Shown one piece after another: positions 393-20,116 of a stretch of DNA of 64,000 bases; position 1 is the stretch's first letter; every line of letters starts with the position of its first letter. The translations under genes were made by a program, and so were the position numbers. The DNA lies in the sequence record NC_041871.1. One strand, 5' to 3'. The DNA comes from Escherichia phage Murica. The notes under the pieces are model-generated. The model did no database searches and was not told the origin of the DNA. It saw only the letters and a list, made by a program, of their open reading frames with translations.

Positions 393-439
393 ATCTCCTG
401 ATTCTCCTTGTGTGGCAATTTTCTTTAAAATAGCAGGGA

Positions 440-994: not shown

Positions 995-1001
995 ACATTC
1001 C

Positions 1002-1412: not shown

Positions 1413-1440
1413 AGCAATCCTCCGTTTTAATTTTAATGAT

Positions 1441-1469: not shown

Positions 1470-1512
1470 GTGTTGACACTAGGTTATTTGTGTGGCAGGA
1501 TAGACTGACAAA

Positions 1513-2795: not shown

Positions 2796-2803
2796 GGACA
2801 CTT

Positions 2804-3565: not shown

Positions 3566-3578
3566 AAGGAGACCTTTA

Positions 3579-4292: not shown

Positions 4293-4298
4293 CAACAT

Positions 4299-4327
4299 AG
4301 CCGGGTAATCCCGGCTTTACTTATTAT
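4299..4327 (+). terminator. intrinsic terminator
   Basis: Hairpin AGCCGGG-taat-CCCGGCT followed by TTTACTTATTAT directly after the 3579-4292 stop. Confidence 0.6.
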
Positions 4328-4354
4328 GGAAAGTATGCAGCGAGGTAGTTAGTT

Positions 4355-4663
4355 ATGTACAAGCATTCCAGAGATCTTGAAAAAGATGCTGTGTTTGGCG
4401 ACCAGATGAAGGAGCTGATCAAACTTATAGGTAGAATGGAAGATAAGTTTGACACTAAAATCTACATCGATAGCAAGATCTTCAACCACAAAATATGGAC
4501 AAATGTGTGTGTTGGGCTACATGGTGATAAAGATATTGTAAATTTGGTTGTAATAAAGTTCATAGTGTGGCAGAATAAGACTATACGTTATTCCGATCCA
4601 CACTTACTTGTTTATCCTATAAAAGACCTACTACAGAAGGAGGACTGCAATGCCGTTATTTAA
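4355..4663 (+). CDS. hypothetical protein
   Basis: 102-aa ORF in co-directional array. Confidence 0.4.
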   Translation: MYKHSRDLEKDAVFGDQMKELIKLIGRMEDKFDTKIYIDSKIFNHKIWTNVCVGLHGDKDIVNLVVIKFIVWQNKTIRYSDPHLLVYPIKDLLQKEDCNAVI

Positions 4664-4919
4664 TCTTGCTAAACCTGTAGAAGCCCACCAGTTTGACGGA
4701 AGCTCTTCATCAGTATCTGATCTGCAACGGTGGATTGATACAGGTGTGTTTACATCGTCACCTGTTCGGACCAGAGATCTTCGTCGCATGTGTGAGCTTG
4801 TCGAGCCTTTTGGTAACCTTGTCTTGTACCAGGGAGATTGGCTAGTTGACTTTATGGGAGACTGGTTGGTAATGAGTAAAGAAGAGATGTTTAAAATTTT
4901 TAAGGAAGAGGCCGAGTAA
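4650..4919 (+). CDS. hypothetical protein
   Basis: 89-aa ORF; start overlaps the upstream gene end, stop overlaps the ligase start. Confidence 0.4.
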   Translation: MPLFNLAKPVEAHQFDGSSSSVSDLQRWIDTGVFTSSPVRTRDLRRMCELVEPFGNLVLYQGDWLVDFMGDWLVMSKEEMFKIFKEEAE

Positions 4920-6202
4920 TGCATCAAATCAAAACAACACTGTACGCACTGAACAAAGATGGCAGCTACCAACAGTGGAAAGTATTCACTGATGGCGAAA
5001 AGGTTATCGTAGAGTTTGGCAAGCTTGACGGTAAATTGCAGTACAAAGAGACGGTATGCACACCTAAGAACGTAGGTCGTGCCAATGAGACTACAGCTGA
5101 GCAACAGGCCGAGCTTGAGGCTATCAGCAAGTGGGAAAAACAAGTCCGTCTGGGGTATGTTGAAAACATGGAAGATTGCGAGCAGGGTGTTGACCTTTTA
5201 CCCATGCTGGTGCATGACTACCTGAAGCGTGGCAAGGCACTTAAATTACCTTGCTGGATCTTGCGTAAGTTAGATGGCCTTCGTCTGCTTGTTGTTTTCC
5301 AAAATGGTGAGCCTAAATTTATTTCCCGTGGTAATAAGTCCTACCCTATTCAAGGAAAGCTTTTAGAGCAACTTCGTTCTTTCCATTCTACCACTGGGAT
5401 TAAACAACTTGATGGGGAACTATACATTCATGGTCTTCCTTTGCAGAAAATAGTGTCTCTTGCTAAACGGTGGCGCACACAGGAAGAGATTCAGGCCGAG
5501 ATCGATAAAGACTATGAGGCAGATAAAAAACGCCGTCATGCCGCAATTAAGGCAGGCTTATCAACATACAAAAACTTCAACAAGGTAGATATTCCTGTCG
5601 ATGTTGAGCCTGTTCGTGATGATTTGCGTTACGGTGGGTACTGTAGCTACGATCTGGAGTATCACATTTTTGATATTCCTAGCGACAAGGTGTGGTGGGA
5701 TCCAGAAACAGAGTCTGGACGCTGCAAGGATCTTATGGATGCAGAGGATACCGTTACCACTCTGATGCTTGATCATATCAAGGTTGTTGACGCAGAGCTT
5801 GCGTACACAGTTGATCATTGCGAAGAATCTGTTGGTATATTCATGTCCGAAGGATATGAAGGTACTATCATGCGTAATTTCTGCGGTAAATACGAGTACG
5901 GTCAGCGAACATCTGAAGCATTGAAATGGAAAAAGTTCAACGACGCAGAGGTGAAAGTTATTGACGTTGAGAAAGATAAGAATGATGAAGGTGTTCTTAT
6001 CTGTGTTGACAAGGAAGGTGTTGTTGTTAAAATGAAGATGAAAGGCACGCACGAGGAGCGTAGCTATGACAGGATGCAGGAAATGATCGGCAAGTTTGTC
6101 ACCTTCAAATACCAAGCAAGGACAGAAGACAACAACTACCAATTCCCTGTCGGTATCTGCGTCCGAAATGTTAACCCAGACACTTGGGAGGTGCTTGAAT
6201 GA
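4919..6202 (+). CDS. DNA ligase
   Basis: Nucleotidyltransferase motif I KLDGLR with the adenylated Lys near residue 118; motif IV EGYEGTIMR and motif V LKWKK; cofactor not resolved. Confidence 0.8.
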   Translation: MHQIKTTLYALNKDGSYQQWKVFTDGEKVIVEFGKLDGKLQYKETVCTPKNVGRANETTAEQQAELEAISKWEKQVRLGYVENMEDCEQGVDLLPMLVHDYLKRGKALKLPCWILRKLDGLRLLVVFQNGEPKFISRGNKSYPIQGKLLEQLRSFHSTTGIKQLDGELYIHGLPLQKIVSLAKRWRTQEEIQAEIDKDYEADKKRRHAAIKAGLSTYKNFNKVDIPVDVEPVRDDLRYGGYCSYDLEYHIFDIPSDKVWWDPETESGRCKDLMDAEDTVTTLMLDHIKVVDAELAYTVDHCEESVGIFMSEGYEGTIMRNFCGKYEYGQRTSEALKWKKFNDAEVKVIDVEKDKNDEGVLICVDKEGVVVKMKMKGTHEERSYDRMQEMIGKFVTFKYQARTEDNNYQFPVGICVRNVNPDTWEVLE

Positions 6203-6325
6203 TGTAGGAAGGTTCAGTAGGTAACGGTAGCCAATTGAATGATGGTTTTCAATCGGCACATACATAACCACACTGTGTAGTGTTGTTGATCGTGTTAGTT
6301 ATGAGTAAACTGGAGAGTATGAAAA

Positions 6326-6796
6326 ATGAAACTTGATAAAAATGTTCAACGAAAAGCTTTCTTGGATATGATCGCATATTCGGAAGGCACAGATAATGGT
6401 AGGCAACCCACTAAGGATCGTGGATACGATGTCATAGTTGGTGGCAAGCTGTTTAGCGATTACAGCAAGCATCCAGGTGTGTACGTTAAGCTAAATGCTA
6501 AACTTACCTCCTCCGCTGCTGGTCGTTACCAGGTTTTGGAGAAGTTTGCTAAACACTACATGGAACAGTTAGGATTGCCAGATTTTGGCCCTGCCAGTCA
6601 GGACAAGATTGCGTTGCAACTGATCCGTGAGTGCAAGGCTCTCGCCGACATTGACGAAGGGCGTATCCACGAGGCTATCCATAAATGCCGTTCCCGCTGG
6701 GCTTCGTTACCTGGTGCTGGATATGGTCAGCATGAACAGAAGATCGAGAAGTTGATCGAGGTGTTTAAAAAGGCAGGCGGTGTTGTCCTTGATTGA
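6326..6796 (+). CDS. endolysin, lambda R-type lytic transglycosylase
   Basis: Near full-length similarity to lambda R as recalled (QRKAFLDM.AySEGTDNGRQ, GYDVIVGG.LF.DYS.HP, GAGRYQ, WASLPGAGYGQ). Confidence 0.9.
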   Translation: MKLDKNVQRKAFLDMIAYSEGTDNGRQPTKDRGYDVIVGGKLFSDYSKHPGVYVKLNAKLTSSAAGRYQVLEKFAKHYMEQLGLPDFGPASQDKIALQLIRECKALADIDEGRIHEAIHKCRSRWASLPGAGYGQHEQKIEKLIEVFKKAGGVVLD

Positions 6797-6799
6797 TCA

Positions 6800-6828
6800 T
6801 TGACATAACCACACGGACGTGGTATTGT
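6800..6828 (+). promoter_or_regulatory. sigma70-type promoter TTGACA-17-TATTGT
   Basis: Consensus -35 with 17-nt spacer upstream of ORF 6860; spacer contains short dyad CCAC-N6-GTGG. Confidence 0.5.
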
Positions 6829-6859
6829 TACCTCATAAAATGTTTAGGAGGGCTTAACC

Positions 6860-7066
6860 ATGAAAGATTTTCTGTTGGCAATTTTGTTCATGGCAGCATG
6901 TCTGGCCTGTGGTGTCGTGTTTGCAGGTGAAACAGCGTATCTTGTCGATGTATATCGGGACAATGGTAAACGTATTTGCCTTTATGAGACAAGTCAAGGT
7001 GAGCTCTACGAGCTTGTGAAACAAGGCGAGGCTGGATCTTGTCCTCGCACCCATTTCTTTGAATGA
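6860..7066 (+). CDS. small secreted protein, possible lipoprotein
   Basis: 68 aa; hydrophobic N-terminus LLAILFMAACLAC with lipobox-like MAAC; directly downstream of the endolysin. Confidence 0.4.
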   Translation: MKDFLLAILFMAACLACGVVFAGETAYLVDVYRDNGKRICLYETSQGELYELVKQGEAGSCPRTHFFE

Positions 7067-7075
7067 GGAGAATAC

Positions 7076-7540
7076 GTGGAAGACGGACGTTTAATGAAGT
7101 CTGAACGCAGGCTTATTGTGCAACTGATCCCAGAAACAGCTTGGTATAATAACCTCCGAAACGCTGTGAAGAAGAGTGAGTGGGATAAGATCCGTAAGAA
7201 GTGCTACAGAGAAGCCAACTACACTTGCGAGGTGTGCGGAGGTAAAGGCAGCAAACATCCAGTTGAGTGTCATGAACTTTACACTTTCGAAGAAGGAGTG
7301 ATCCGGCTTGTCGGACTGATAGCGTTGTGCCCAGATTGTCACACATCGGTGCATCCTGGGTTAGCAAATATCCGTGGAAAGTATGCTCAGGCAGTTAATC
7401 AGTTGGCTAAGGTGAATAAGATCACCAAGGGTATGGCAGAGGCGTATTACCGAGACTGCTTTGCAGAGTGGCGTGAGCTTAGTAAAGTTCCAGAATGGAA
7501 GACTGACTTTTCGTGGATAGAGGGTTACCTTGATGGCTAA
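7076..7540 (+). CDS. zinc-binding protein, possibly HNH-like
   Basis: CEVCGG...HPVECH...LCPDCH cysteine/histidine cluster. Confidence 0.35.
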   Translation: MEDGRLMKSERRLIVQLIPETAWYNNLRNAVKKSEWDKIRKKCYREANYTCEVCGGKGSKHPVECHELYTFEEGVIRLVGLIALCPDCHTSVHPGLANIRGKYAQAVNQLAKVNKITKGMAEAYYRDCFAEWRELSKVPEWKTDFSWIEGYLDG

Positions 7541-7823
7541 GAAACCTGTAAAAGAGAAATTTGATAAGACAGCTTTTGTATTCGATACACCTTTGGACGA
7601 TATCATCAGAGGTATGCAAGCCTTGTATCGGAAGTCTGAATCTGAGCAGCTGTCGGAATCAGAGCTTTACTGGTTAGGTTGGTGGGAGCTTAATCTACCT
7701 AAAGCTGAAAGCTCTGATCTAAAAACCGTTAAAACGTGTGCCCAAGAAAATGCTGCACTTGGAATTTACCACAAAAGAAAAAGATCAACAAAAAGCTCTC
7801 CAAGAAAGACTAAAAAGTCTTGA
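7530..7823 (+). CDS. hypothetical protein
   Basis: 97-aa ORF with basic C-terminus. Confidence 0.35.
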   Translation: MMAKKPVKEKFDKTAFVFDTPLDDIIRGMQALYRKSESEQLSESELYWLGWWELNLPKAESSDLKTVKTCAQENAALGIYHKRKRSTKSSPRKTKKS

Positions 7824-7849
7824 CAAATGAGTCTCTGATCTGATATTAT
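7820..7849 (+). promoter_or_regulatory. sigma70-type promoter TTGACA-18-TATTAT
   Basis: Consensus hexamers; followed by dyad AGTTAA-N7-TTAACT and a GGAGAA RBS before ATG 7883. Confidence 0.6.
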
Positions 7850-7882
7850 CAGTTAACTATTTATTAACTAGGAGAACTAGGT

Positions 7883-8191
7883 ATGCTTAAAATTTTTATT
7901 GTTGAAGATAAAGATATCGTCCAGTTGTATGCAAACGAGAATCACAAAGGTATGATTCTGAAGAAGGCAAAAAACCTTCATGAAAACACAATTCAACCGG
8001 GTGATGTAATTAAGATCTGTGGTTATATGATACCAGACTCCTTGATGAAAATAACCCACCACTGGGGGTCTAATCCGTTCCTTTTTGAAAAGTATTGGGA
8101 TGTTGAGTCACTTATTGCAGAGAGTGATGATGCATTTCATTACAGCATCCAACCATCTTGCAGAATAACTAACAGGAGGGGCTTTGAGTAG
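7883..8191 (+). CDS. hypothetical protein
   Basis: 102-aa ORF downstream of a consensus promoter. Confidence 0.45.
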   Translation: MLKIFIVEDKDIVQLYANENHKGMILKKAKNLHENTIQPGDVIKICGYMIPDSLMKITHHWGSNPFLFEKYWDVESLIAESDDAFHYSIQPSCRITNRRGFE

Positions 8192-9323
8192 AGAATATCC
8201 ACTTATTGAATCTGTAGATTGTCTTGCTGATCTTCTCGAACCTGACGCTATAGTTTATTATGACTTCGACCAGGTTGCATATCAAGCTGCGGCAAGTTGT
8301 GAAAAAAGGACAATTGAGGTAACACACAAAGCCTCCGGACGTAAGAAGATGTTTAAAACACGAACAGAGTTCTGGGGTCGGCAGAAGAACACCGTTGGTG
8401 GTTGGTTAAAAGCTGAGAATACCAACCGTGAAGCCGCATGTAAAAAGTCTGGTAAGGAGTTTATTCCGTGGACACGTGAAGATTTTGATGTCTTGGATAT
8501 ACAAACACCTGACCCTGTAGAGAACTGCTTGCACACAATAAAATGTAAGGCAAATGCAGTTCTTAACTATCTTGGTATTCCGGAAGAGCGATGCGTCGGG
8601 GTGTTGGGAGGCACAGGTAACTTCAGACTAGATCTTCCAATGCCGGAAAGATACAAAGCCAACCGTAACAATACCCTTCGACCACTGCTGCTTGGAGATG
8701 CAAGACAGTATCTCCAAAAGCAGTATAATGCTCAAGTGATCAACGGTATCGAGGCTGACGACTGGTTAGCTATCCAGCAATTTGAAGGTTGGAACCACTA
8801 CCAAAAAACAGGTAAGTTCAACAAGTTTATTATCTCTATTGATAAGGACCAAAGAACACTACCGGGGCTTGTGTTCGATCCTATGCGAAACGATAAGGGA
8901 GATTTTGTAAGGGAAACCCCTATGCTGATCGATAACGGTATGGGGAACATCTTCATGAAGCCTAATGGAGAGGTTGGTGGTTACGGAATGCTGTTCTTCG
9001 GATACCAAATGCTGTGTGGTGACTCTGCTGACAATATCAAGCCGTATCAAGGACTTATCGGTAAAGGTAAGTTCGGGGATGCCTCAGCATTCTACCTGCT
9101 GTCTCAGTGCAGCACTCCAAAAGAGATGTGGGTGGCTATTATTGATCAGTACAAGAAGTGGTTCCCGAAAGGTGTTGTTAAGTATACTGACTTCAATGGT
9201 ATTGATCGTAGAATTTCCGTAGGTCAATGGATGAGTATAATTTTTGACTGTTTGTATATGAAGCGAACATTCAATGATCAAACAAAACTTGTTAACGTTC
9301 TTAGAAATGTTGGAGCAATTTGA
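8184..9323 (+). CDS. flap endonuclease / 5'-3' exonuclease (RNase H-like)
   Basis: Motifs NGIEADDWLA, IISIDKD, LCGDSADNIKPYQGLIGKGK typical of 5'-3' exonuclease/FEN proteins. Confidence 0.8.
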   Translation: MSREYPLIESVDCLADLLEPDAIVYYDFDQVAYQAAASCEKRTIEVTHKASGRKKMFKTRTEFWGRQKNTVGGWLKAENTNREAACKKSGKEFIPWTREDFDVLDIQTPDPVENCLHTIKCKANAVLNYLGIPEERCVGVLGGTGNFRLDLPMPERYKANRNNTLRPLLLGDARQYLQKQYNAQVINGIEADDWLAIQQFEGWNHYQKTGKFNKFIISIDKDQRTLPGLVFDPMRNDKGDFVRETPMLIDNGMGNIFMKPNGEVGGYGMLFFGYQMLCGDSADNIKPYQGLIGKGKFGDASAFYLLSQCSTPKEMWVAIIDQYKKWFPKGVVKYTDFNGIDRRISVGQWMSIIFDCLYMKRTFNDQTKLVNVLRNVGAI

Positions 9324-9646
9324 TGACTAAAAATTCTGTAGATAGTGCAATTATGGAAGCTGTTTTTGAGGATGATCATACAACAGGGACCATTAAAACA
9401 AAAAATACATTTATTGTTGCCACAGGTATGTGGCGGTTGTATGAAGATGACACTATTGCATACATCTTGTATACTGATGATTACGCAGATGATCGTGTAT
9501 GGTCTGCTGTGTTAAAAGAGGATTGTGAGCTGATTGAGGGCGAGCGGCTATGCATGTTTACCAGCGTGGAAACAGACGTTAAGCTTTGCTCTCTTGTGCT
9601 GTTCAAAGACAAAGCTTATTCCCCAGATGAAGAGGAAACAGTATGA
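9320..9646 (+). CDS. hypothetical protein
   Basis: 108-aa acidic ORF overlapping neighbours by 4 nt. Confidence 0.4.
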   Translation: MMTKNSVDSAIMEAVFEDDHTTGTIKTKNTFIVATGMWRLYEDDTIAYILYTDDYADDRVWSAVLKEDCELIEGERLCMFTSVETDVKLCSLVLFKDKAYSPDEEETV

Positions 9647-10272
9647 GAGAAAGACTGCTGTCTATAGATCAGTCTCTTACCCACACAGCCTGCGTTGTAT
9701 GGGACGATGGAAAGCCTGTTCATAAGGTTGTGTTACGAACTCAAAGCTCATCTGCAAAAGAAAAGAAACCAGGGACGGTTTCTTTTGCAACAGCTGCTGA
9801 GCGTATTGACTGGATCTGCAAACAGGTCAGATATTATATCCACACGCACGGAGTTGACACCGTGGTTATGGAAGGGCTTTCCTTTGGATCACGCGGGGAT
9901 GCCACACGTGAACTGGCCGGGTTGTTTTACGGTCTTGAAATTATGCTTTGGGATGCCTTAGCTGATTGTGCAAATGACGGCCTGTTTAAGGTCCACACAG
10001 TGACACCAACAACTGCCAAAAAGTTTGCTCGTAGTCATCTTCCTGAAGAACTTGCTTTTGAGGAGAAGAAAAAGCTTGACAAAAAGACAGGTAAAGAGCA
10101 TACTGTGAAGAAACCTGTTACAATGGATAAAAAGTTGATGGTTAAGGCCTGCGAAGTATCTGAACCTGGGTTCCTAGACGGGATCAATTTGGTACAAGGT
10201 AAGGCCGATCTCGCAGATGCTTATTGGATAGGCAGGGCTCATCTGGAGGGATTATCGCAAAGCGTAAAATAA
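9643..10272 (+). CDS. RuvC-like nuclease (putative Holliday junction resolvase)
   Basis: N-terminal LSIDQSLTHTA, central VVMEGLSFG and C-terminal ADLADAYWIGRAHL fit the RuvC fold pattern. Confidence 0.5.
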   Translation: MRERLLSIDQSLTHTACVVWDDGKPVHKVVLRTQSSSAKEKKPGTVSFATAAERIDWICKQVRYYIHTHGVDTVVMEGLSFGSRGDATRELAGLFYGLEIMLWDALADCANDGLFKVHTVTPTTAKKFARSHLPEELAFEEKKKLDKKTGKEHTVKKPVTMDKKLMVKACEVSEPGFLDGINLVQGKADLADAYWIGRAHLEGLSQSVK

Positions 10273-10829
10273 GAAAGAAAGCTGTCAAAGCCCCAGTTCA
10301 TAACGGGTGGTTAAAAGATTCTAAGGACATAGCCAACTTTCGAAAAGAATTGTCAGAGGAGCAGGATGGTCTTGATCCGATCTTGTGCGAGCCACTTCGT
10401 AAGCCTTGTTTAGATCATGATCATCTGACTGGTCGTTGCAGGGGTGTTTTGTCTCAATGCACTAATACCTTTGAGGGGTATGTGCTTAAATACTGGATGA
10501 AATACTGTAACGAGTATACAGATTGCAGTTTATCAGAGGCGTTGCGCCGGATGGCTGACTATTTGGAGAAAGACTACAGCGACTTCCCACTCCACAAAAA
10601 CTACAGAGATGATATGACAAAGTTCTTGAGGAGATGCTCTAAAGCTACGATTATTGCACGAGCAGAATCAGATCTCAATCTTGTCATTAATCCGGAGTGC
10701 ACCAAGCATGAGGCTATTGAGTTCTACATGCAGGAGTTTATAAAGAAAACTGAGGAGAGAGATTTCTATGGGGATGAAAAAGGTATTCAATCCTTGCGAC
10801 TCAGTCCTGATCAGGATGAAATACCGTAA
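10224..10829 (+). CDS. endonuclease VII-like nuclease
   Basis: CLDHDHLTGRCRGVLSQCTN matches the EndoVII core signature; true start uncertain (overlaps upstream ORF). Confidence 0.6.
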   Translation: MDRQGSSGGIIAKRKIRKKAVKAPVHNGWLKDSKDIANFRKELSEEQDGLDPILCEPLRKPCLDHDHLTGRCRGVLSQCTNTFEGYVLKYWMKYCNEYTDCSLSEALRRMADYLEKDYSDFPLHKNYRDDMTKFLRRCSKATIIARAESDLNLVINPECTKHEAIEFYMQEFIKKTEERDFYGDEKGIQSLRLSPDQDEIP

Positions 10830-10989
10830 CTGGAAAGGTGTTGTTGCAGATCGCTGCGTTACTGAGCCTAATTTATGGTTTGGCTCTACAGAGTATCATA
10901 AAGAAGAGCAGTGGTTGATGCGTGCCTTCGATGTAGACAAGGGCGAATATCGTGACTTCGCTTTAAAAGACATTCTTCAGTTTTACTAA
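10816..10989 (+). CDS. hypothetical protein
   Basis: 57-aa ORF from ATG 10816 overlapping the EndoVII stop. Confidence 0.3.
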   Translation: MKYRNWKGVVADRCVTEPNLWFGSTEYHKEEQWLMRAFDVDKGEYRDFALKDILQFY

Positions 10990-11001
10990 GGAATCTTAAC
11001 G

Positions 11002-11985
11002 ATGATGACAAAGTTAACTCTTGAGCAAATTTTAACACTAAAGCAACAGGGATACACTAATAGACAAATTGCTCGTGAATTTTTAGGCCGTGAGTCACGT
11101 GAGAGCTGGATCCGACTACAGCTTAAACGTGCACAAGATAATATGTCAGAGATTGTAGGAGAAGCAACGGAGCGCTTCCTTGAAGAGCACAAAGGTGCTA
11201 AAGTTTGGGTGTATGATACAGAGACATCCCCAACAAACGGCTGGTTCTTTGGGCACTATAAGACCAACATTCAAACCTGCGGTATTGAAGTTATGCCCTA
11301 TATGCTAACTTTCGCAGGTAAGTGGTTAGACAGCCCTAGTGTGGTTGACTGCGCTCTTCCAGATTACAAAATGTGGGATGAAGATATTCACAATGATCTC
11401 GAATTGATTCAGGATTTGTGGTATTATCTGGATAAATGCGATGTCGCAGTAGCCCACAATTCAGGTTTTGACTGCGGGTGGGCCAACCAACGATTTGCAT
11501 TTCACGGGTTGCCTCCAACAAGCCCTTACAAAGAGGTTGACACCCTTAAAATGATCAAGAAGGCATTCCGTTTGAATGCAAACACTTTGGAGTATGCATG
11601 CAAATACTTCCAACTGGCCCGACAGAAACTGATTGATCACACATTTGAAATGTGGATCAAGTGTGTCCATGGCGATCTTGAGGCATTTAAACAGATGCGA
11701 GAGTATAATGTTGGTGATATCCTGTCTCTGGAAGGACTGTATTTGCTGGCTCGCCCGTTTGCTAAGCAGCACCCAAACATGTCATTGTACTACCAAGACG
11801 AGGAGCCAAAGGTTCGTTGCCCACGCTGTGGTGGAGAACACTTTCACGAGGAAGAAGCTTTGGCATATACTCAGCTGAGTGCATTTAAAACATACCGCTG
11901 TGAAGGTTGTGGATCTGTTGTTCGTGACCGTAACAACATCCGTACCAGAGAAGAAATGAAAAACACCCTGATTCAGATAATCTAA
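11002..11985 (+). CDS. DEDD-family 3'-5' exonuclease with N-terminal HTH and C-terminal zinc ribbon
   Basis: HTH-like LTLKQQGYTNRQIAREF; exo motifs VYDTETSP and AHNSGFD; CPRCGG...CEGCG. Confidence 0.55.
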   Translation: MMTKLTLEQILTLKQQGYTNRQIAREFLGRESRESWIRLQLKRAQDNMSEIVGEATERFLEEHKGAKVWVYDTETSPTNGWFFGHYKTNIQTCGIEVMPYMLTFAGKWLDSPSVVDCALPDYKMWDEDIHNDLELIQDLWYYLDKCDVAVAHNSGFDCGWANQRFAFHGLPPTSPYKEVDTLKMIKKAFRLNANTLEYACKYFQLARQKLIDHTFEMWIKCVHGDLEAFKQMREYNVGDILSLEGLYLLARPFAKQHPNMSLYYQDEEPKVRCPRCGGEHFHEEEALAYTQLSAFKTYRCEGCGSVVRDRNNIRTREEMKNTLIQII

Positions 11986-11993
11986 CAATTATA

Positions 11994-12021
11994 GGGAGGC
12001 TTGCGCCTCCCTTTTCCTTTT
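11994..12021 (+). terminator. intrinsic terminator
   Basis: GGGAGGC-ttgc-GCCTCCC followed by TTTTCCTTTT, 9 nt after the exonuclease stop; lies inside the ORF-track extension of the next gene. Confidence 0.8.
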
Positions 12022-12030
12022 GGAGGCACT

Positions 12031-12849
12031 TTGAGCAAGAAAGAGTCCAACGACAAATATTACACAAACCCTAAGTATGCAGAATATCTTGTTGGTAAAG
12101 TAAAAGACAAGTATGGGAATTGTGCATACGTTGAGCCTTCTGCTGGAAGGGGTTCTTTTTCAAAACTATTTTCAGAGATACTGTCGTACGATCTAGTACC
12201 AGATCCTGAATTTGAAGGACCAACACAGTGCATTCAGGCAAACTTCTTGGAGGTGCATCCTAAGGCAGATGTCTTCATAGGTAACCCACCATTTGGCAAG
12301 AATTCATCTTTAGCTTGCAAATTCTTTAACCATTGTGCATCATTGCTAGAGCTTGGCGGGGCTATAGCCTTCATCTTGCCACGGACATTTGAAAAAATAT
12401 TTTTTGCAAACAAACTGGACATGTCTATGCACCTTGTCTACAGCGAAAGGTGCCCTAAGAACTCGTTTTTACTTAATGGCAAACCTTACGACGTGCCATG
12501 TGTTTTCCAAATTTGGGAGAAAAAGGCGTGCAATAGGGATCCTGTAGAGATTGGAGAGAATAAGTTATTTTCTTTTAGCACACCGGATGACTACGACTTC
12601 TGTGTAAGACGTGTTGGGTATAACGCTGGAAAAGTATTGGGTGATGATGATCCAAAATCTGAAGAATCTACGTATTTCATAAAATCTTTAGTTGACGGTG
12701 TTGACAGAGTGTTTGCTGAATGCTATTCTTCTTTTCAAGAAGAAGCAGGTAAGACTGCTGGAATGAAGAGTATAGGCAAGAAAGAACTACAATACATTTT
12801 GGAGACCTGGTATGATCAAAAGCATAGACTTGACAAAAGAACTTACTGA
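12031..12849 (+). CDS. N6-adenine DNA methyltransferase
   Basis: YYTNP, AdoMet motif VEPSAGRGSF, catalytic NPPF; no in-frame ATG before the motifs, so start assigned to TTG 12031 four nt after GGAGG. Confidence 0.75.
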   Translation: MSKKESNDKYYTNPKYAEYLVGKVKDKYGNCAYVEPSAGRGSFSKLFSEILSYDLVPDPEFEGPTQCIQANFLEVHPKADVFIGNPPFGKNSSLACKFFNHCASLLELGGAIAFILPRTFEKIFFANKLDMSMHLVYSERCPKNSFLLNGKPYDVPCVFQIWEKKACNRDPVEIGENKLFSFSTPDDYDFCVRRVGYNAGKVLGDDDPKSEESTYFIKSLVDGVDRVFAECYSSFQEEAGKTAGMKSIGKKELQYILETWYDQKHRLDKRTY

Positions 12850-13270
12850 TGCAAAAGCTTTTGGTGAGACAGCGGTACAAAGAGGCCAGGCGATGGGACT
12901 GGCACTACCTTTCGTCTTAAAAGAGCACTTTACAGATTTTCAACTTATCAAAGGTGATAAGGGAATGCTTATCCTGGAGCATAAGTTGAGTAAGAAACGC
13001 TACAAAGTTGTTTTTAATTCTAAAGCCCCAACAAAACTTGGATTCAGAACTTACAATCTCAACCCATCCTATACTAAGGGTGTTGGAAGGGTAGAACAAC
13101 AGCATTTCAGCGCTAGAGCTTCTTTAGCTCCTTTGATGCTAAATTTCTCAGGGGTGGCTTTAGGATACCTTGATAAGAAAAGAGTTCTTCATGTCCGTTT
13201 CACAGACTTTGTAACGCTTTTAGCTAACAACGAAGTTGATGAAAAGGGACGTGTAAAAACAAACTTCTAA
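12812..13270 (+). CDS. hypothetical protein
   Basis: 152-aa ORF overlapping the methyltransferase 3' end. Confidence 0.4.
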   Translation: MIKSIDLTKELTDAKAFGETAVQRGQAMGLALPFVLKEHFTDFQLIKGDKGMLILEHKLSKKRYKVVFNSKAPTKLGFRTYNLNPSYTKGVGRVEQQHFSARASLAPLMLNFSGVALGYLDKKRVLHVRFTDFVTLLANNEVDEKGRVKTNF

Positions 13271-13285
13271 TAACGCATAGTATGA

Positions 13286-13489
13286 TTGGAGACTACAATG
13301 ACACTAAAGTTAACAATTCCAGACAGCTTTTCAGAAAACTTTATCCCAGAAATGATGGGTAAGATGCGATCATTGCTTGATCAGATTGAGGAAGCTGTTT
13401 GGGAAGACGATGCTGTAGTGGCTAACGAGCTAGTAGATAAGTGTAAAAGTATTATTGATGCAGTTGAAGAATACCACGGAGGTTTTTGA
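13286..13489 (+). CDS. hypothetical protein
   Basis: 67-aa acidic ORF. Confidence 0.3.
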   Translation: METTMTLKLTIPDSFSENFIPEMMGKMRSLLDQIEEAVWEDDAVVANELVDKCKSIIDAVEEYHGGF

Positions 13490-14103
13490 TGGATATTATT
13501 GTTCTTAACGCCCCACCCAGCAGTGGTAAGGATCACATTGCAGATCTCTTGTTGGAAGCTATTCCTAACTCACACCACCGTGAGGTTAAGGAGATGCTCT
13601 TCAGTGTGGCAATTAAGGCAGCTGGTGTAACTCCTCAACTCTGGAATGCACTTTATGACCGCCACTACAAAGAAGATCCTTGCCCTTTCTTAATGATAGA
13701 CGGCAAGCATGTTTCTCCGCGAGAGTGGATGATCCATTGTAGTGAAAATCTGATTAAACCTATCTTTGGTGAAGATGCTTTCGGTAAGGCCGCAGTCACA
13801 TCCTTGAAGAAAGATTTCCCTAAAGGTAAAGGGGTTGTTGTTTACTCCGATGGTGGATTCAAAGAGGAGCTGGCATGCCTTAGTGAGTACGCATACAGCA
13901 CAGGTGGAGATCTGTTGTTGTTCCGTATTCACCGTGTAGGATATGACTGGGGAAATGATTCCAGAACCTATCTAAGTCTGGAAAAGAACGGAATAAAAGG
14001 GGTTGAGTTTGATGTTGTAAACCCTGAAGGTGCACCTTGGGAGTGTGCATCGGAGATTGTGTGCAAGTATATTGATGCTAAAGAGGCCCAAGAAGAATGT
14101 TAA
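13486..14103 (+). CDS. deoxynucleoside monophosphate kinase-like P-loop protein
   Basis: N-terminal IIVLNAPPSSGKDHIADLL resembles the T4 gp1 dNMP kinase P-loop as recalled. Confidence 0.55.
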   Translation: MMDIIVLNAPPSSGKDHIADLLLEAIPNSHHREVKEMLFSVAIKAAGVTPQLWNALYDRHYKEDPCPFLMIDGKHVSPREWMIHCSENLIKPIFGEDAFGKAAVTSLKKDFPKGKGVVVYSDGGFKEELACLSEYAYSTGGDLLLFRIHRVGYDWGNDSRTYLSLEKNGIKGVEFDVVNPEGAPWECASEIVCKYIDAKEAQEEC

Positions 14104-14690
14104 TCGGAATTGATGTAGATCTGACACTGGTAGATTCAGGAACAGCATGGTGGGAGTGGTTGGAGCGTTTGTATGGTCCAGCCAGTAAGACAGTAGCTAA
14201 ACCTTCTAATGGGCTAATGTATTACGATCTGTCAAAGTATTGGCCTGATCGTCCCAAAGAAAACATCATAGGACCTTTTGATTTCTGGAGTGATCCGTTC
14301 CTCTACGACTTCCTTAAGCCTGAAGAGGGGGCTATTGAGGTTATGAAAGATTTGGTGGCTCGTGGTCACAAGCTTGCATTTATCTCGGTATGCAAGAAAG
14401 GTCACCTTGCATCTAAATCAAGGTTCTTAAAGCGTTGGACCAGTGATTTTATGGATCTGGACGATCACACCCAAGGCCACGGCTTCTACGCCACACATTT
14501 CAAAGGGAATGTGGCTGTAGATGTTATAATTGACGACAGGCATGAATACCTGAACCAATTCGCTTCACGACCTGAAGTTATTAAAATCCTAAAAGATACA
14601 CCTTATGAGCAATTCGAGGAGTTAAAGGTCAGTGTTGACTATACCGCTAATAGCTGGTATAAAATAGGAAAATTTTTAGAAGGTATTTGA
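14097..14690 (+). CDS. HAD-superfamily phosphatase (5'(3')-deoxyribonucleotidase-like)
   Basis: Motif I IGIDVDLTLVD (DxDxT) at the N-terminus and a VIIDD acidic motif. Confidence 0.6.
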   Translation: MLIGIDVDLTLVDSGTAWWEWLERLYGPASKTVAKPSNGLMYYDLSKYWPDRPKENIIGPFDFWSDPFLYDFLKPEEGAIEVMKDLVARGHKLAFISVCKKGHLASKSRFLKRWTSDFMDLDDHTQGHGFYATHFKGNVAVDVIIDDRHEYLNQFASRPEVIKILKDTPYEQFEELKVSVDYTANSWYKIGKFLEGI

Positions 14691-14691
14691 A

Positions 14692-14892
14692 ATGGGCAGA
14701 TGTTCTAAAGGTGGCGATCCTGTAGTCAGATACGGTGACTGGCTAGAGGTGTATGATCTAGGAGGTAAGCTAGTGTATGCCTCCAGGATCACCCAAGACA
14801 TGTGCTCCGATATGTTCAACAGATACCTTGCATTTAAGGCCAACATAAACCCAGACGAAATTTCCAAAATTAAAACAAGGAGAGCTAAATAA
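14692..14892 (+). CDS. hypothetical protein
   Basis: 66-aa ORF. Confidence 0.35.
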   Translation: MGRCSKGGDPVVRYGDWLEVYDLGGKLVYASRITQDMCSDMFNRYLAFKANINPDEISKIKTRRAK

Positions 14893-15875
14893 TGCTAAAA
14901 CTGTGCACTGCAAAGATCATTGCTGACAGCATTTCCGAGAAAGGTAAGCGCATCACCACTTTTGAGCTAGAGTATCCTCGAATTATTCACTCAGAGCTTA
15001 TGACGCACCGAGTGTTCAGCCGAAACGCCATGTCTTCCCGTGCAGTGCCTGTCGGAAAGATGCTGCAACAGATTGTGGAGAATCCGGCAATGCCAGTTCG
15101 CTTCGGTGTAAATAAGCGAGGAATGGAAGATGGTGGGGAACACGATCAAAAGATCCGTGTAGAGTACACTGATATGGAGCTAACTCCGGAAGAGTTTTGG
15201 AAAGAAGCTGCAAAAAACGCCGCTTGGCATGCAGAGAAGTTTGCCCTTGCTGGTTACCATAAGCAAGTATGTAACCGCTTAGTGGAGCCTTTTCAGCGCA
15301 TGAAAACAGTTGTAACAAGCACCGAGTGGAATAATTTTTTCCACCTCCGTTGCTGGCACGATGCGGATCCTACGATTCAGATGTTAGCTAATTGTATGTG
15401 GGAGGCTCTTGTGAATAGCACTCCTGAAATCCTTAAACCGGGTCAATGGCACACTCCATATGTAGAGCACGTTTATTTGGACGGGGAGTTTAACTACGCT
15501 GTACGTGACACAGAAGGAAAGCTCTGCATTCTCGATACTAAAGAAGCTCTGTCTATCAGTGCTAGTTGCTGTGCACAAGTATCTTATCGAAATATTGACA
15601 GCACGTTTGAAAAGGCAGACAGTGTGGCTAAAAAATTGATTGGTGGGGATCGTATTCATGCAAGCCCTTACGAGCACCAGGCAACACCTATGGATCACGA
15701 TAACGCAATGGAACGTTTAAACTACTACCTGTCTTCATGTGAAATCACACAAGACATCAGTACTTGGCAGGAAGGTGTAACCCATCAAGACCGTGATGGT
15801 AAATTCTGGTCTGCCAACTTTTGTGGGTGGGTTCAGCACAGACAACTGCTTAATAACCACTTCGTGAAAGGTTAA
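14892..15875 (+). CDS. ThyX-like flavin-dependent thymidylate synthase homolog
   Basis: THRVFSRNAMSSR fits the ThyX RHR-x7-S signature with Thr at the first Arg; 327 aa is long for ThyX. Confidence 0.5.
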   Translation: MLKLCTAKIIADSISEKGKRITTFELEYPRIIHSELMTHRVFSRNAMSSRAVPVGKMLQQIVENPAMPVRFGVNKRGMEDGGEHDQKIRVEYTDMELTPEEFWKEAAKNAAWHAEKFALAGYHKQVCNRLVEPFQRMKTVVTSTEWNNFFHLRCWHDADPTIQMLANCMWEALVNSTPEILKPGQWHTPYVEHVYLDGEFNYAVRDTEGKLCILDTKEALSISASCCAQVSYRNIDSTFEKADSVAKKLIGGDRIHASPYEHQATPMDHDNAMERLNYYLSSCEITQDISTWQEGVTHQDRDGKFWSANFCGWVQHRQLLNNHFVKG

Positions 15876-15876
15876 T

Positions 15877-15905
15877 CCTATCACAGCGATAGGTAACTTT
15901 TGTGT
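15877..15905 (+). terminator. intrinsic terminator
   Basis: CCTATC-acagc-GATAGG followed by TAACTTTTGTGTT. Confidence 0.65.
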
Positions 15906-15933
15906 TGACTAATAGTATTAGATAATCTATAAT
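15905..15933 (+). promoter_or_regulatory. sigma70-type promoter TTGACT-17-TATAAT
   Basis: Near-perfect consensus; followed by leader hairpin GGCTCAC-N7-GTGAGCC (15937-15957) and GGAGA RBS. Confidence 0.7.
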
Positions 15934-15973
15934 AATGGCTCACTTTGTTGGTGAGCCAGAAATGGAGACAGAT

Positions 15974-16435
15974 ATGAGTAATGTTATGATTCCTAAAAAG
16001 ACATTTATTTCAGTTACTTTGGATTTCCTATCTACCGTTCCCGGGTTTAACGTTCGCACACGAAACGGTCTCCGAGCTGCACTCTTTGCCGTAGGGTTTG
16101 ATTTAAAAAGTATTGATGTTCTTCGTGGAAAAAACGTTCGATGCAAAAATAAGCCAACACATTATCGAAAGGCAGATGTATTTGCTGGTGTCATGCGTGC
16201 AGACTTTAGATACCCGCAAATGTATAACGGTGTAGATATTTTAGATGTGGATAAAGCACCTGGTGAGGCAATGCTTGTTCAAGATCTTCCGTATGATATT
16301 CCTGTAGAGGATCGTGTTAATGTAAGAAAGTATACAAAACAATCTGAAAAGGCTGAAGATATTCATATTGTTGATGAACCTTTCAATTTTGAAGATCTGC
16401 ATCGCCTGGAAAAATTATTCGGTATTGAAAGCTAA
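15974..16435 (+). CDS. hypothetical protein
   Basis: ORF-track start 15935 lies 2 nt after the -10; start moved to ATG 15974 after GGAGA. Confidence 0.45.
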   Translation: MSNVMIPKKTFISVTLDFLSTVPGFNVRTRNGLRAALFAVGFDLKSIDVLRGKNVRCKNKPTHYRKADVFAGVMRADFRYPQMYNGVDILDVDKAPGEAMLVQDLPYDIPVEDRVNVRKYTKQSEKAEDIHIVDEPFNFEDLHRLEKLFGIES

Positions 16436-16445
16436 GGTGGTGAAG

Positions 16446-16676
16446 ATGAGTCATAACTCCAAGTGGAAGGATCTTGGTTTTGCAAGTCGGTCAGAGTATG
16501 TTGGTTGGCTTTGGTTCAACGGCCTGACAAACGATATTAAAATGTATGATGATGTTTATTATGACGAGTATACAGGCAAAATTATAAATATCTCTGTAGA
16601 AGAGGATACCTTTATCCAGCAAGATACTGATACCTGCCTTGATAAATACGTTGATGAAGTGGAGGAAGCAAATTGA
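16446..16676 (+). CDS. hypothetical protein
   Basis: 76-aa ORF from ATG 16446 preceded by AAGGTGG; overlaps the nrdA start. Confidence 0.4.
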   Translation: MSHNSKWKDLGFASRSEYVGWLWFNGLTNDIKMYDDVYYDEYTGKIINISVEEDTFIQQDTDTCLDKYVDEVEEAN

Positions 16677-18988
16677 TCACCAAGGTAATTAAAAGCAACG
16701 GATGTGAAGTGGCATTCGATCCAGAACGTTTAAATAAGGCAGCTATTTTCGGTGACGACGGTAACGGCAATTGGTCACATATTGCACTGGATGCATACAA
16801 ACGACTGTATGATGGATGTACAACCAAAGAAGTTAACCAAGCTATCATAGACTCCTGTGTTAGCCGTAAAGACGAAGCACATTCCCGTATGGCTGGTCGT
16901 GTTCTTATTGGTCAGATTTATAAAGAGGCTTTTGGAGGGTTTACAAAGATCCCTTCCTTACCATCATTTTACAACGACATGGTTGAGAAAGGGTATTGGG
17001 AGGATATGGGATATAGCTTTACCGAGCTAAACACTTTAGACGCTGTTATTGACCACAGTAAAGATCTCGGTTATGGCTATGCAGTCCTTAAACAGTTTCG
17101 CGACAAATACGGGATCAAGGATACTCTTAAAGACACCTTGTTTGAATCTCCCCAGATGATGTTTATGGGGATAGCAATGGCTGTCATGAAGAATATGCCG
17201 AAAGAACGTCGTATCAACGATGTTGTAAAATTATACACTTATCTGTCCGACTTAAAGATCAATGCCCCGACACCGTACTTAAACGGGCTGCGCACAGGTA
17301 AGACAGGGTATGCATCTTGTTGTGTAATAAAAGCTGACGATACAGCAAAATCTATTGGTGTGGCACGTGAAGTTGCGTACACAATGACGGTTAACCAAGC
17401 AGGTATCGGCTACTATTTATCATCAAGATCTGCAGGTGATGGTGTTCGCGGTAACACTATTAAACACATGGGTAAGATTCCATATTATCGAGGTATTGAC
17501 GCTGGGGTTAAGGAGAACAGGCAACAATCACGTGGCGGTTCTGCAACAGTATCATTCCTTGCACTAGACCCGCAGATTGATGAGCTAATCCGCTTGAGAA
17601 ACCCTATGACTGTTGCTTCAAAAAGAATCAACACCATGGACTACTCCATCGGTATTAATAGGTCGTTTATCAACCGTGTGGCTAAGAATTTAGATTGGAT
17701 GCTTGTTTCTTATAAGCACGCTCCTCAACTGCATGAGGGTATCTTCACCATGTCTATGGAGGAGTTTGATGCAGAGGTTGATCGTATTGCTAAAGATGAC
17801 AGTATCCCTAAAACATGGATCCGAGCCAGAGATCTTGCTGTTGAACTGATCACGCAGCGTACTGAGGTGGGAAGGCTGTATGTATACTGGACAGATGAGA
17901 TGAATAGACATACACCTTTTAAAGATGTGATCTATTCAAGTAACCTGTGTGCAGAAATAGCCCTCCCTACAAAAGGCTATTCAGATATGCGTAATATCTT
18001 CAAGTACGATGCTGATGATGGAGAGGTTGCATTGTGCTTCCTGTCATCTCTTGTAGCTGGAAGGGTTACTCCAGAGGAGTATGAGGATGTTGCATACTAC
18101 ACGGTGCTTATGATTGACAATGTTATGGAAATCATGACATATCCGTATGAAAATATGGAAAGCACAGTTAAAAAACGCAGATCCATCGGGGTTGGCCTTA
18201 CCAATGTTGCACATTTTATTGCCAGCCACAAGGTTACTTACGGATCTCCTGAAAGTAAACAGCTTGTTCACGATCTTGCAGAACTTCACAGCTACAGCTT
18301 GCATAAGGCAAGTTTACGGTTGGCAAAAGAGCGTGGTGTCTGCGAGTGGATGCATAAAACAAAATATCCAGAAGGTTGGTTACCAATCGACACCTATAAC
18401 AAAGAGGTCGATAGCGTGGTGAAAGATCCTTCTCTTAAACAGGATTGGGAAGGGTTACGTAAAGAAATTATTGAAAATGGTGGGCTACGTAATAGCGTTC
18501 TTGAAGCATATATGCCTAATGAAAGCTCTTCGCTGGCAACAAACACCACTAACGGGGTTTATCCTGTCCGTGAGCACATTATCTTTAAAAAGTCGCCACA
18601 AGGGCAGGTGCTGTTTATCGTTCCTGACTATGATGAGTTGAAAGAGTATTACACCTCGGCTTGGGACGTTGATACTAACGACATGATCGATATGTATGCT
18701 GTGATTCAAAAATTTACAGGTCAGGCAATCAGCGCGGATTTATACATAGATTACACCAAGTTGAAAGATGGTAAAATTTCAATGAAGGAGCAGCTAGGGT
18801 ACCTTATCCGTGCCACTAAATTCGGGATGAAGACATGGTATTATTTAAACTCCAGGGTTGGTGCTGGTGACTCATTGGCAGAGGAACTTCATGCCAAGAA
18901 ACAGGCTGAAGATGAAACCAGAAAGAACTACCCTTTGATTGCAGATAGTTCGGTTGAAGATCCGTATTGCGAAAGTTGTGCACTATAA
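16673..18988 (+). CDS. nrdA: ribonucleotide reductase class Ia alpha subunit
   Basis: 771 aa; N-terminal ATP cone (VIKSNGCEVAFDPERL), active-site SSNLCAEIALP, C-terminal YCESCAL. Confidence 0.95.
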   Translation: MITKVIKSNGCEVAFDPERLNKAAIFGDDGNGNWSHIALDAYKRLYDGCTTKEVNQAIIDSCVSRKDEAHSRMAGRVLIGQIYKEAFGGFTKIPSLPSFYNDMVEKGYWEDMGYSFTELNTLDAVIDHSKDLGYGYAVLKQFRDKYGIKDTLKDTLFESPQMMFMGIAMAVMKNMPKERRINDVVKLYTYLSDLKINAPTPYLNGLRTGKTGYASCCVIKADDTAKSIGVAREVAYTMTVNQAGIGYYLSSRSAGDGVRGNTIKHMGKIPYYRGIDAGVKENRQQSRGGSATVSFLALDPQIDELIRLRNPMTVASKRINTMDYSIGINRSFINRVAKNLDWMLVSYKHAPQLHEGIFTMSMEEFDAEVDRIAKDDSIPKTWIRARDLAVELITQRTEVGRLYVYWTDEMNRHTPFKDVIYSSNLCAEIALPTKGYSDMRNIFKYDADDGEVALCFLSSLVAGRVTPEEYEDVAYYTVLMIDNVMEIMTYPYENMESTVKKRRSIGVGLTNVAHFIASHKVTYGSPESKQLVHDLAELHSYSLHKASLRLAKERGVCEWMHKTKYPEGWLPIDTYNKEVDSVVKDPSLKQDWEGLRKEIIENGGLRNSVLEAYMPNESSSLATNTTNGVYPVREHIIFKKSPQGQVLFIVPDYDELKEYYTSAWDVDTNDMIDMYAVIQKFTGQAISADLYIDYTKLKDGKISMKEQLGYLIRATKFGMKTWYYLNSRVGAGDSLAEELHAKKQAEDETRKNYPLIADSSVEDPYCESCAL

Positions 18989-18995
18989 TTTTAAA

Positions 18996-19020
18996 GGGGC
19001 TTCGGCCCCATTTTAGAGGT
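18996..19020 (+). terminator. hairpin between nrdA and nrdB, candidate attenuator/partial terminator
   Basis: GGGGC-ttcg-GCCCC followed by ATTTTAG. Confidence 0.45.
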
Positions 19021-19027
19021 TAGAATA

Positions 19028-20116
19028 ATGGCTGTATTTAATGCTGAGAACACCGCTCATAAAACTGGTGACTATCCGCTGTTTCTAGGACAGCAAATGG
19101 GTATGTATGACTCTATCAACAAAAAATATCCACAACTGTTTGAACTATACAAAAAACAAAAAGAGCAAGATTGGGCAGAGGATGAAGTGGATTTGTCGCA
19201 ATCTATTTCAGATTTTGTAACATGCTCCAAGTCAACTTATGACGTGATGGTGCAGACCTTGATGTGGCAATGGGAGGCTGATAGCGTTGCGGCAAGATCG
19301 ATCATCTGCCTCTTTTCACCATTCATCACTAATAGTGAGCTTTTCACTCTATTGATGAAACAGTCAGAGATTGAAGTTCTTCACGCACTAACTTACTCAG
19401 AGATTGTTAGACAATGCCTCCCAAATGCCCGTGAGATTATAGAAGAGATTCAGGAAAACCAAAACGTTCTGAGCAGATCTGGCGTTATTGTCAAATACAT
19501 GCAAGAGCTTGAGGTTATTGGTGCAAAATACCGACTGGATCCTTCTAGTGTTGAAGAAGATATTGTGCGGAAATGCATTCTTAGAGCGCTTTTTGCACTT
19601 TTAGCCCTGGAAAGTATTGAGTTTATTGCAAGTTTTGCATGCACTTTCGCAGTAGCTGAACAGGGTATCTTTGTTCAGGTGGCGCAGCTTGTTCAAAAAA
19701 TCATGCTTGACGAAATGCTGCATTCGAAAGGTGATTTTGCCATCATTGATATCCTGCTTAATGATCCCGCATGGGAGAAAAGCTTCCTTGAGATAAAGGG
19801 GGAGTTAAAAGAGATTCTTGATGAAGTACGAACCAAAGAGTACGGTTGGAGTGACTATATTTTCAGCGAAGGAAGAGCGATTATAGGTCTTAACTCACCG
19901 TTGCTTAAAGAATGGGTTGACTATAACTGCTCACCGATTTATGATTACTACGACATCGACAAAGACTTTGTGCCGCCAACAAAGGACCCGCTACCGTTTA
20001 TGCAGGTGTGGATGAAACCTTCATTGCAACAGACGGCAAACCAAGAAATGTCGAACACTGACTACCGCGTCAACACAACTGTTAATGACGCTGAAGAAGA
20101 AATTTGGGAGTTTTAA
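19028..20116 (+). CDS. nrdB: ribonucleotide reductase class Ia beta subunit
   Basis: 362 aa directly downstream of nrdA; ferritin-like helix pattern with acidic C-terminal tail. Confidence 0.9.
   Translation: MAVFNAENTAHKTGDYPLFLGQQMGMYDSINKKYPQLFELYKKQKEQDWAEDEVDLSQSISDFVTCSKSTYDVMVQTLMWQWEADSVAARSIICLFSPFITNSELFTLLMKQSEIEVLHALTYSEIVRQCLPNAREIIEEIQENQNVLSRSGVIVKYMQELEVIGAKYRLDPSSVEEDIVRKCILRALFALLALESIEFIASFACTFAVAEQGIFVQVAQLVQKIMLDEMLHSKGDFAIIDILLNDPAWEKSFLEIKGELKEILDEVRTKEYGWSDYIFSEGRAIIGLNSPLLKEWVDYNCSPIYDYYDIDKDFVPPTKDPLPFMQVWMKPSLQQTANQEMSNTDYRVNTTVNDAEEEIWEF

Follow-up and report, generated by a model that had tools for sequence, protein, structure and literature searches.

In the genome of Escherichia phage Murica (NC_041871.1), of which we analyzed one stretch of 64,000 nt (the window), a gene for a predicted N6-adenine methyltransferase starts at a TTG codon that lies directly behind an intrinsic terminator. 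Our comparisons show the position of this start codon, that the preceding hairpin has been maintained, that a promoter would not fit between the two and that the protein has a methyltransferase fold. From this layout, we infer that termination at the hairpin is partial and that levels of the methyltransferase protein are low. Low, read-through-dependent expression is a plausible reading of the sequence, and we consider it rather likely that partial termination at the hairpin combines with a weak TTG behind a strong GGAGG to give a low enzyme dose.

The methyltransferase gene and its start codon

By its sequence, the window belongs to an rV5-like Vequintavirus genome. In searches with a 3-kb query, the region shared 99.8% identity with Escherichia phage vB_EcoM-Pr121LW and 97.6% with rV5, and every one of the 119 phage records that matched was a Vequintavirus. 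Sequence comparison also identifies the methyltransferase gene (12031–12849, plus strand; 272 aa, TTG start, TGA stop) as the orthologue of rV5 gp096/ORF100, which has the same TTG start (rV5 position 77289) and the same hairpin, apart from the base of the stem, which is A in the window and G in rV5. Upstream lies the gene for a DnaQ-like 3′-5′ exonuclease with a C-terminal zinc ribbon (rV5 gp095/ORF99; 11002–11985, plus strand), which ends with TAA at 11983–11985. The downstream gene, gp097 (12812–13270, plus strand; phrog_9938, of unknown function), overlaps the 3′ end of the methyltransferase gene by 38 nt and also accompanies the methyltransferase in a metagenomic homologue (contig L097).

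Parts of this arrangement are on record. A 272-aa CDS has been deposited from the TTG equivalent to 12031 in rV5, LL12, and Pr121LW, and the LL12 record also annotates its ribosome-binding site. The rV5 paper lists the hairpin adjoining the methyltransferase gene as rho-independent terminator t099 (77251–77279, −15.3 kcal/mol) and the hairpin before a second methyltransferase gene as terminator t122 (Kropinski et al. 2013; PMC3606486, Table S4). These features are listed there without a regulatory conclusion from their juxtaposition (PMC3606486). The TTG start and the terminator are both already published annotation, and it is the regulatory reading that is absent from the rV5 paper. Among the 119 matching records, ~20 GenBank entries carry the name 'Campylobacter phage' (MG0656xx; unannotated, with C. 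jejuni given as the host). At 97–98% identity to positions 11000–14000 of the window, they look like mislabelled or contaminant assemblies.

Mechanical translation of the methyltransferase frame yields an ORF at 12001–12849 that opens with a TTG inside the hairpin loop, and the first ten codons of this ORF are the hairpin and its tail. The original prediction was that this extension is only the terminator hairpin and that translation starts instead at TTG 12031, with GGAGG 4 nt before it and no in-frame ATG ahead of the catalytic motifs. Each part of this prediction held. The Shine-Dalgarno sequence GGAGG occupies 12022–12026 (plus strand), 4 nt before TTG 12031, and was unchanged in 9/9 aligned relatives. 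No Met codon occurs in this frame before residue 131, which is past both motif I (residues 35–43) and NPPF (residues 85–88). In alignments of 30 and of 111 homologues (37–47% mean column identity), the N-termini, typically MSKK..LDQYYT or, more broadly, 'MSKK..D(Q/K)YYT', aligned exactly to TTG 12031, in agreement with the deposited rV5, LL12, and Pr121LW CDSs. TTG recurs among homologues that are 46–54% identical and is the sole possible start in those of Phapecoctavirus (54% identical protein) and Klebsiella phage 05F01 (52%), as well as in the uncultivated viral contigs L006 and L010. Moreover, the loop sequence GCAA replaces TTGC in ~13/119 Vequintavirus records, including JES2013 and DrSchubert, which abolishes TTG 12001. 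This comparative evidence settles the start: translation almost certainly begins at TTG 12031, and the in-frame stretch from 12001 is a non-coding hairpin.

There is next to no chance that translation begins at the upstream TTG 12001 to give the 282-aa protein proposed by some automatic gene callers, since, although the frame is open from 12001 and a metagenomic cluster representative (P0004) has been called with the 10-residue extension, the codon lies in the hairpin loop, the sole purine run before it (GGGAGG) ends 1 nt upstream and is buried in the stem, the extension is not covered by homologue N-termini, and the codon is missing from the ~13 genomes with the GCAA loop.

The weakness of TTG as a start codon is partly offset by GGAGG, a strong ribosome-binding site. 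We rejected the idea that TTG is universal in this methyltransferase family, as three homologues that are 48–50% identical (P0012, P0016, and P0022) use ATG and another (P0014) uses GTG. Giant-virus-like members of the family likewise combine an ATG start with a longer N-terminus. The family reaches contigs binned as giant-virus genomes (L018–L083, many of them IMG/VR GVMAG), at 35–38% identity, and in these members the longer N-terminus (..GLKRNTIDKYYT) that follows the ATG is conserved.

Because of its TTG start, the gene is misannotated in public records. In the record for VB-EcoM-WM (PQ014731), the methyltransferase is truncated, being annotated only from an internal Met, and is accompanied by a spurious antisense ORF; in the record for Klebsiella phage 05F01 (LC483177) it is split in two. 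Among the features listed for YP-6 (OQ376695), there is no plus-strand CDS at the TTG and a minus-strand CDS lies further in. The practical value of identifying the start is thus in annotation, as the TTG causes real errors in public records (truncation, splitting, and the 10-residue extension). Start assignments also differ elsewhere in these genomes. The endonuclease VII gene (window 10224–10829) is annotated from ATT 10251 in rV5 and from TTG 10224 in LL12 and Pr121LW, and the corresponding stretch of the rV5 RefSeq record has 3 ATT and 2 CTG starts among 114 CDS; these ATT and CTG starts may be annotation choices rather than biology.

Family and substrate of the protein

The protein carries motif X (DKYYT, 12052–12066, residue 8), motif I (EPSAGRGSF, 12133–12159, residues 35–43), and motif IV (NPPF, 12283–12294, residues 85–88), all encoded on the plus strand. 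Across 111 homologues, D8, T12, E35, P36, G39, G41, F43, and N85–F88 were invariant. Searches of Pfam, NCBIfam, and PDB sequences with the single protein returned nothing at threshold: the best Pfam match was Eco57I (E 0.011; 16.3 bits versus a cut-off of 25.3), and NCBIfam gave none. The protein falls in PHROG 5172, which is labelled 'unknown function'. Precomputed matches to PF26055 (Mtase_EDM2) exist for many homologues, and a local Pfam scan gave no PF26055 match for the window protein or for P0008, P0012, and P0034.

Family placement came only from a homologue profile and from structure comparison. Against solved structures, the profile of 111 homologues matched Ta1320 (8e-5), M.TaqI (0.036), and METTL5 (0.14). 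The AlphaFold (AF2) model of the protein (pLDDT 94.3, pTM 0.89) consists of a class I Rossmann fold and a C-terminal target-recognition domain. The longest structure alignments, which cover 224–252 of the 272 residues and include the C-terminal domain, were all with DNA adenine methyltransferases that have target-recognition domains, namely M.BseCI, MmeI, CamA, and M.TaqI, while the catalytic core alone was closest to METTL5-type RNA enzymes. Motifs and predicted fold support assignment of the protein as a small gamma-class (TaqI-like) N6-adenine DNA methyltransferase, in line with the N6-adenine methyltransferase originally predicted, and we infer that DNA is the substrate and adenine-N6 the target atom. 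The protein differs from characteristic members of that class. Its sequence is 15–20% identical to those of M.TaqI, M.BseCI, CamA, and the methylase module of MmeI; it has 272 aa, compared to 380–750 for these gamma-class enzymes; and it scores below the Pfam DNA-methylase threshold, with some homologues carrying PF26055 Mtase_EDM2 instead.

These comparisons also bear on whether the protein could instead methylate adenine-N6 in host or phage RNA (rRNA or tRNA), as an enzyme of the METTL5/TrmN type. The best PDB profile match was Ta1320, METTL5 was also listed, some sources name homologues 'predicted RNA methylase', and no Pfam model of a DNA methyltransferase scored above threshold. However, the matches to Ta1320 and METTL5 span only ~150 residues of the catalytic core, while the alignments that extend over most of the protein are with DNA enzymes. 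In addition, the protein is laid out like gamma-class DNA enzymes, with motifs in the order X-I-IV and then a C-terminal recognition domain, and the neighboring genes are for DNA replication and nucleotide metabolism. We consider an RNA-modifying enzyme very unlikely.

The hairpin and its transcriptional setting

The terminator hairpin, AGGGAGGC-TTGC-GCCTCCCT (t099; stem 11993–12000/12005–12012, plus strand), has 8 pairs, 6 of them G-C, and begins 7 nt past the exonuclease TAA. It is followed by an interrupted T-tract, TTTCCTTTT (12013–12021, plus strand), which together with T12012 reads TTTTCCTTTT, that is, four U, CC, and four U. The hairpin folds at −15.7 kcal/mol, compared to a shuffle mean of −6.9 (z −3.94), and 0/200 shuffles were as stable. 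Together with the tract of 8 T in 10, it qualifies as a terminator by standard criteria, and ARNold called it as one. Since a simple terminator scan was not enriched over shuffles in positions 1–20000 (15 found versus 14.0 expected) and missed t122 because it extended the stem into the T-tract, we relied on folding z-scores and on the published ARNold list. We rejected a regulated leader attenuator, as the sole rival pairing, of the 3′ arm (GCCUCC) with GGAGGC at the ribosome site, folds at only −10.8 kcal/mol (z −0.14), like shuffled sequence.

Comparison with relatives revealed that the hairpin has been kept. The 76-nt hairpin region was present in 119/119 Vequintavirus records with at least 89.6% identity, and a pyrimidine tract follows the hairpin in all relatives, where it reads TTTTCATTTT or ATTTTTCTTTT. 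Three metagenomic homologues (L096–L098; 83–86% protein identity) keep the hairpin, the pyrimidine tract, GGAGG, and TTG in register, and their sequence upstream of the hairpin is unrelated to the window. In L097, the stem is GGGAGAT/ATCTCCC, in which both partners of two pairs have changed (−12.1 kcal/mol, z −3.7); the stem of L096 has one mismatch, and that of L098 is degraded. Over six sequences, a sample too small for statistics, 91.7% of cells pair, compared to 52–69% when the partners are slid by 1–3 columns. In JES2013, typing phage 4, DrSchubert, and others, the loop TTGC is flipped to its reverse complement GCAA, a GNRA loop, and the stem is identical. On sequence evidence, this polymorphism is a flip of the hairpin by inversion at the DNA level. 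The compensatory stem changes, the loop flip that spares the stem, and retention of the hairpin in a different upstream context indicate that it is under maintenance, and the compensatory changes, which come from only 6–9 sequences, appear to indicate selection for pairing.

The ~800 nt upstream of the methyltransferase gene in L097 (positions 1–830; the homologue is 86% identical) contain promoter-like TTGACA sequences. This segment has no ORF longer than 54 aa, and an Rfam scan of it gave no match.

The gap from the T-tract to the methyltransferase start is only 9 nt, too short for a promoter to fit, so transcription must read through the hairpin. The nearest strong upstream sigma-70-like promoter, rV5 P93, is at 7820–7849 (plus strand; 11/12 consensus matches) and is presumed to be the source of the transcripts that reach the hairpin. 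The rV5 list has no promoter between P93 and P105 (window ~14625) (PMC3606486). The genes that lie behind the hairpin before P105 are those for the methyltransferase, gp097, gp098, a dNMP kinase homologue, and a 5′-nucleotidase (to ~14690). Unless the candidate promoter described next is active, at least the four genes beyond the methyltransferase gene also need read-through, so that termination at the hairpin cannot be tight and would affect more than the methyltransferase. The original prediction that the methyltransferase is expressed at a low, read-through-dependent level is thus supported with respect to read-through, given the lack of space for a promoter; the low level is plausible, and specificity for the methyltransferase is weakened by the at least four further genes. 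Within the methyltransferase gene itself, a candidate sigma-70-like site (TTGACA-17-TATTCT with an extended −10 TG; 12701–12729, plus strand) lies 83 nt before the gp097 start, and it is possible that this site is an independent promoter for gp097 onward that would free the downstream genes from read-through.

The four published plus-strand terminators of the transcription unit (window 11994, 18996, 26058, and ~36671) are all 9–23 nt before the next start; in a compact genome, terminators are expected to sit this close to the gene that follows. A ribosome that terminates close to a hairpin can hinder formation of that hairpin. Since only 7 nt lie between the exonuclease stop codon and the stem, and CC interrupts the T-tract, termination at t099 is possibly inefficient. 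Together with the need of the downstream genes for read-through, the interrupted tract and the nearby stop codon limit the strength of the terminator. Our literature searches found nothing relevant on transcriptomes or methylomes of rV5-like phages or on the combination of terminator, TTG, and methyltransferase; the proteomics published for rV5 covers virions only (PMC3606486).

Enzyme dose and the other methyltransferase genes

In the mechanism that we favor, RNA polymerase from upstream sigma-70 promoters would have to cross the intrinsic terminator at 11993–12021, and a fraction of transcripts would probably stop at the hairpin, 9 nt before the start codon. Transcripts that read through would be translated from the weak TTG behind GGAGG. 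Termination and the weak start would together hold a catalytic, potentially harmful enzyme at a low level. There is a precedent for such an arrangement in the E. coli rpsU-dnaG-rpoD operon, in which an internal terminator and poor initiation signals precede dnaG, whose product is needed in small amounts. The window gene resembles dnaG in having an operon-internal terminator directly before a gene whose product would be required at a low dose, together with poor initiation signals. It differs in that the weakness is confined to the start codon, which lies behind a strong Shine-Dalgarno sequence, and in that termination is here predicted.

Several observations count against such damping of expression. 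Some homologues start at ATG or GTG, the Phapecoctavirus gene has the TTG without a terminator, LTH01 and a Seunavirus, which have no methyltransferase there, also carry a hairpin behind the exonuclease gene, and the strength of GGAGG partly offsets the TTG. Vequintavirinae have been reported to be exceptionally sensitive to restriction systems (PMC8594841). This sensitivity fits weak or narrow methylation and is compatible with a low dose, but is not specific to it.

Relatives that lack either the exonuclease gene or the methyltransferase gene allow one to ask to which of the two the hairpin belongs. In the Vequintavirinae TH18 and LTH01, the methyltransferase, gp097, and gp098 genes are missing and the exonuclease gene is followed directly by that for the dNMP kinase homologue. 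By comparison of these genomes, the methyltransferase/gp097/gp098 block (window 12031–13489) is a presence/absence indel with its left edge at the terminator. LTH01 has a strong terminator after the exonuclease gene, AACCGCCC-TTCG-GGGCGGTT-T8, which is a different hairpin, and a Seunavirus without the methyltransferase has GGGC-TTCG-GCCC there, while TH18 has no hairpin at this position. Conversely, in L096–L098, a t099-type hairpin stays with the methyltransferase gene and the exonuclease gene is absent, and in Phapecoctavirus homologues the TTG is kept and the terminator is absent. The evidence as to ownership is therefore mixed, and a role at a cassette boundary and a regulatory role are both possible.

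One alternative to a low enzyme dose is that the hairpin serves mainly as transcript punctuation with little effect on methyltransferase dosage, such that only the TTG tunes expression. The hairpin would then shield the exonuclease message at its 3′ end or, after processing, the downstream message at its 5′ end, and the U-rich tract could be a landing site for the ribosome (protein S1). Similar hairpins do occur between gene pairs with no obvious need for damping, such as those for ribonucleotide reductase (RNR) alpha and beta (18996–19014), and the hairpins located behind the exonuclease gene in LTH01 and a Seunavirus, the interrupted T-tract, and the essential nucleotide-metabolism genes downstream all fit this explanation. 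However, t099 has the hairpin and T content of a terminator and was called by ARNold, the block remains with the methyltransferase where the upstream gene differs, and three of the four methyltransferase genes lie behind such hairpins. We regard both punctuation and its end-protecting form as unlikely.

A second alternative is that the hairpin marks the boundary of a mobile cassette made up of the hairpin, the methyltransferase gene, and gp097, and that the link between methyltransferase genes and terminators reflects where acquired genes are tolerated or recombine rather than regulation. The absence of the methyltransferase/gp097/gp098 block from TH18 and LTH01 is as expected for a cassette, the sequence that L096–L098 share with the window starts just a few bases ahead of the hairpin, and the loop flip shows that, as DNA, the palindrome undergoes recombination. 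On the other hand, a cassette is compatible with a regulatory role as well, the Phapecoctavirus copy lacks the hairpin yet keeps the TTG, and the compensatory stem changes (6–9 sequences) point to selection for pairing rather than hitch-hiking. Both the boundary role and the recombinational explanation of the link strike us as decidedly improbable, and we retain low, read-through-dependent dosage as the favored reading.

The remaining methyltransferase genes of the phage show related arrangements. The original prediction described a second NPPY methyltransferase at 26095–26628 with its own upstream terminator. This gene (plus strand; 177 aa, ATG start; rV5 gp118/ORF123; phrog_799) indeed encodes TNPPYS; as the first enzyme has NPPF, however, it is not a second instance of NPPY. 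Its terminator was also confirmed: t122, GCCCTC-TTCG-GAGGGC-TTTTAT (26058–26079, plus strand; −14.7 kcal/mol, z −3.95), lies 15 nt before the start codon. In rV5, there are four methyltransferase genes, of which three (ORF100, ORF123, and ORF231) follow predicted terminators and two start at TTG. ORF231 (Dcm-like), the leader of which is outside the window (rV5 NC_011041 132376–132479, minus strand), has the predicted promoter P231, terminator t232 (GGCCCTGCCC-GAAA-GGGTGGGGC-TTTTT), AGGAGA, and a TTG 18 nt past the terminator. It has no ATG before motif I; apart from the TTG, the one start codon in frame is a GTG located within the stem. This promoter-terminator-TTG layout was conserved in 114 records. 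ORF231 thus shares with the window gene a G+C-rich terminator, a T-tract, a Shine-Dalgarno sequence, a TTG, and the lack of an early ATG, but it belongs to an unrelated methyltransferase class, is on the other strand, and has a predicted promoter just upstream of its terminator. Finding three of four methyltransferase genes behind terminators has p ~0.002 (20 predicted terminators, ~238 genes; post hoc), and finding two of four with a TTG start has p ~0.004 (TTG accounts for 3/114 annotated rV5 starts; post hoc). As these are hypergeometric/binomial values calculated post hoc on predicted features, the pattern across the rV5 methyltransferase genes is suggestive.

One tentative extension, which we think doubtful, is that the methyltransferase genes of rV5-like phages share a dedicated damping module, consisting of terminator hairpin, pyrimidine tract, strong Shine-Dalgarno sequence, and TTG, that travels as a cassette. 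Such a module might control the timing of methylation, for instance if read-through were coupled to translation of the gene upstream or to a phage antitermination function. If so, it would help to explain the restriction sensitivity of phages that have four methyltransferases. The recurrence of the layout at an unrelated methyltransferase gene would, if confirmed, inform how rV5-like phages dose DNA methylation. Partial termination and a weak start codon, stacked on an enzyme needed in small amounts, would be a clean natural example of combined dampers. The arrangement is real and already annotated, and the regulatory idea is reasonable and of a known kind, opening no new type of system; the TTG-after-terminator layout is probably a tidy but ordinary form of gene regulation that keeps enzyme levels low.

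Upstream of ORF235, the fourth rV5 methyltransferase gene, which starts at ATG, there is a 7-pair hairpin (GGGGAGG-CACT-CCTCCCC; region 134962–135039 of rV5, minus strand) without a T-tract.
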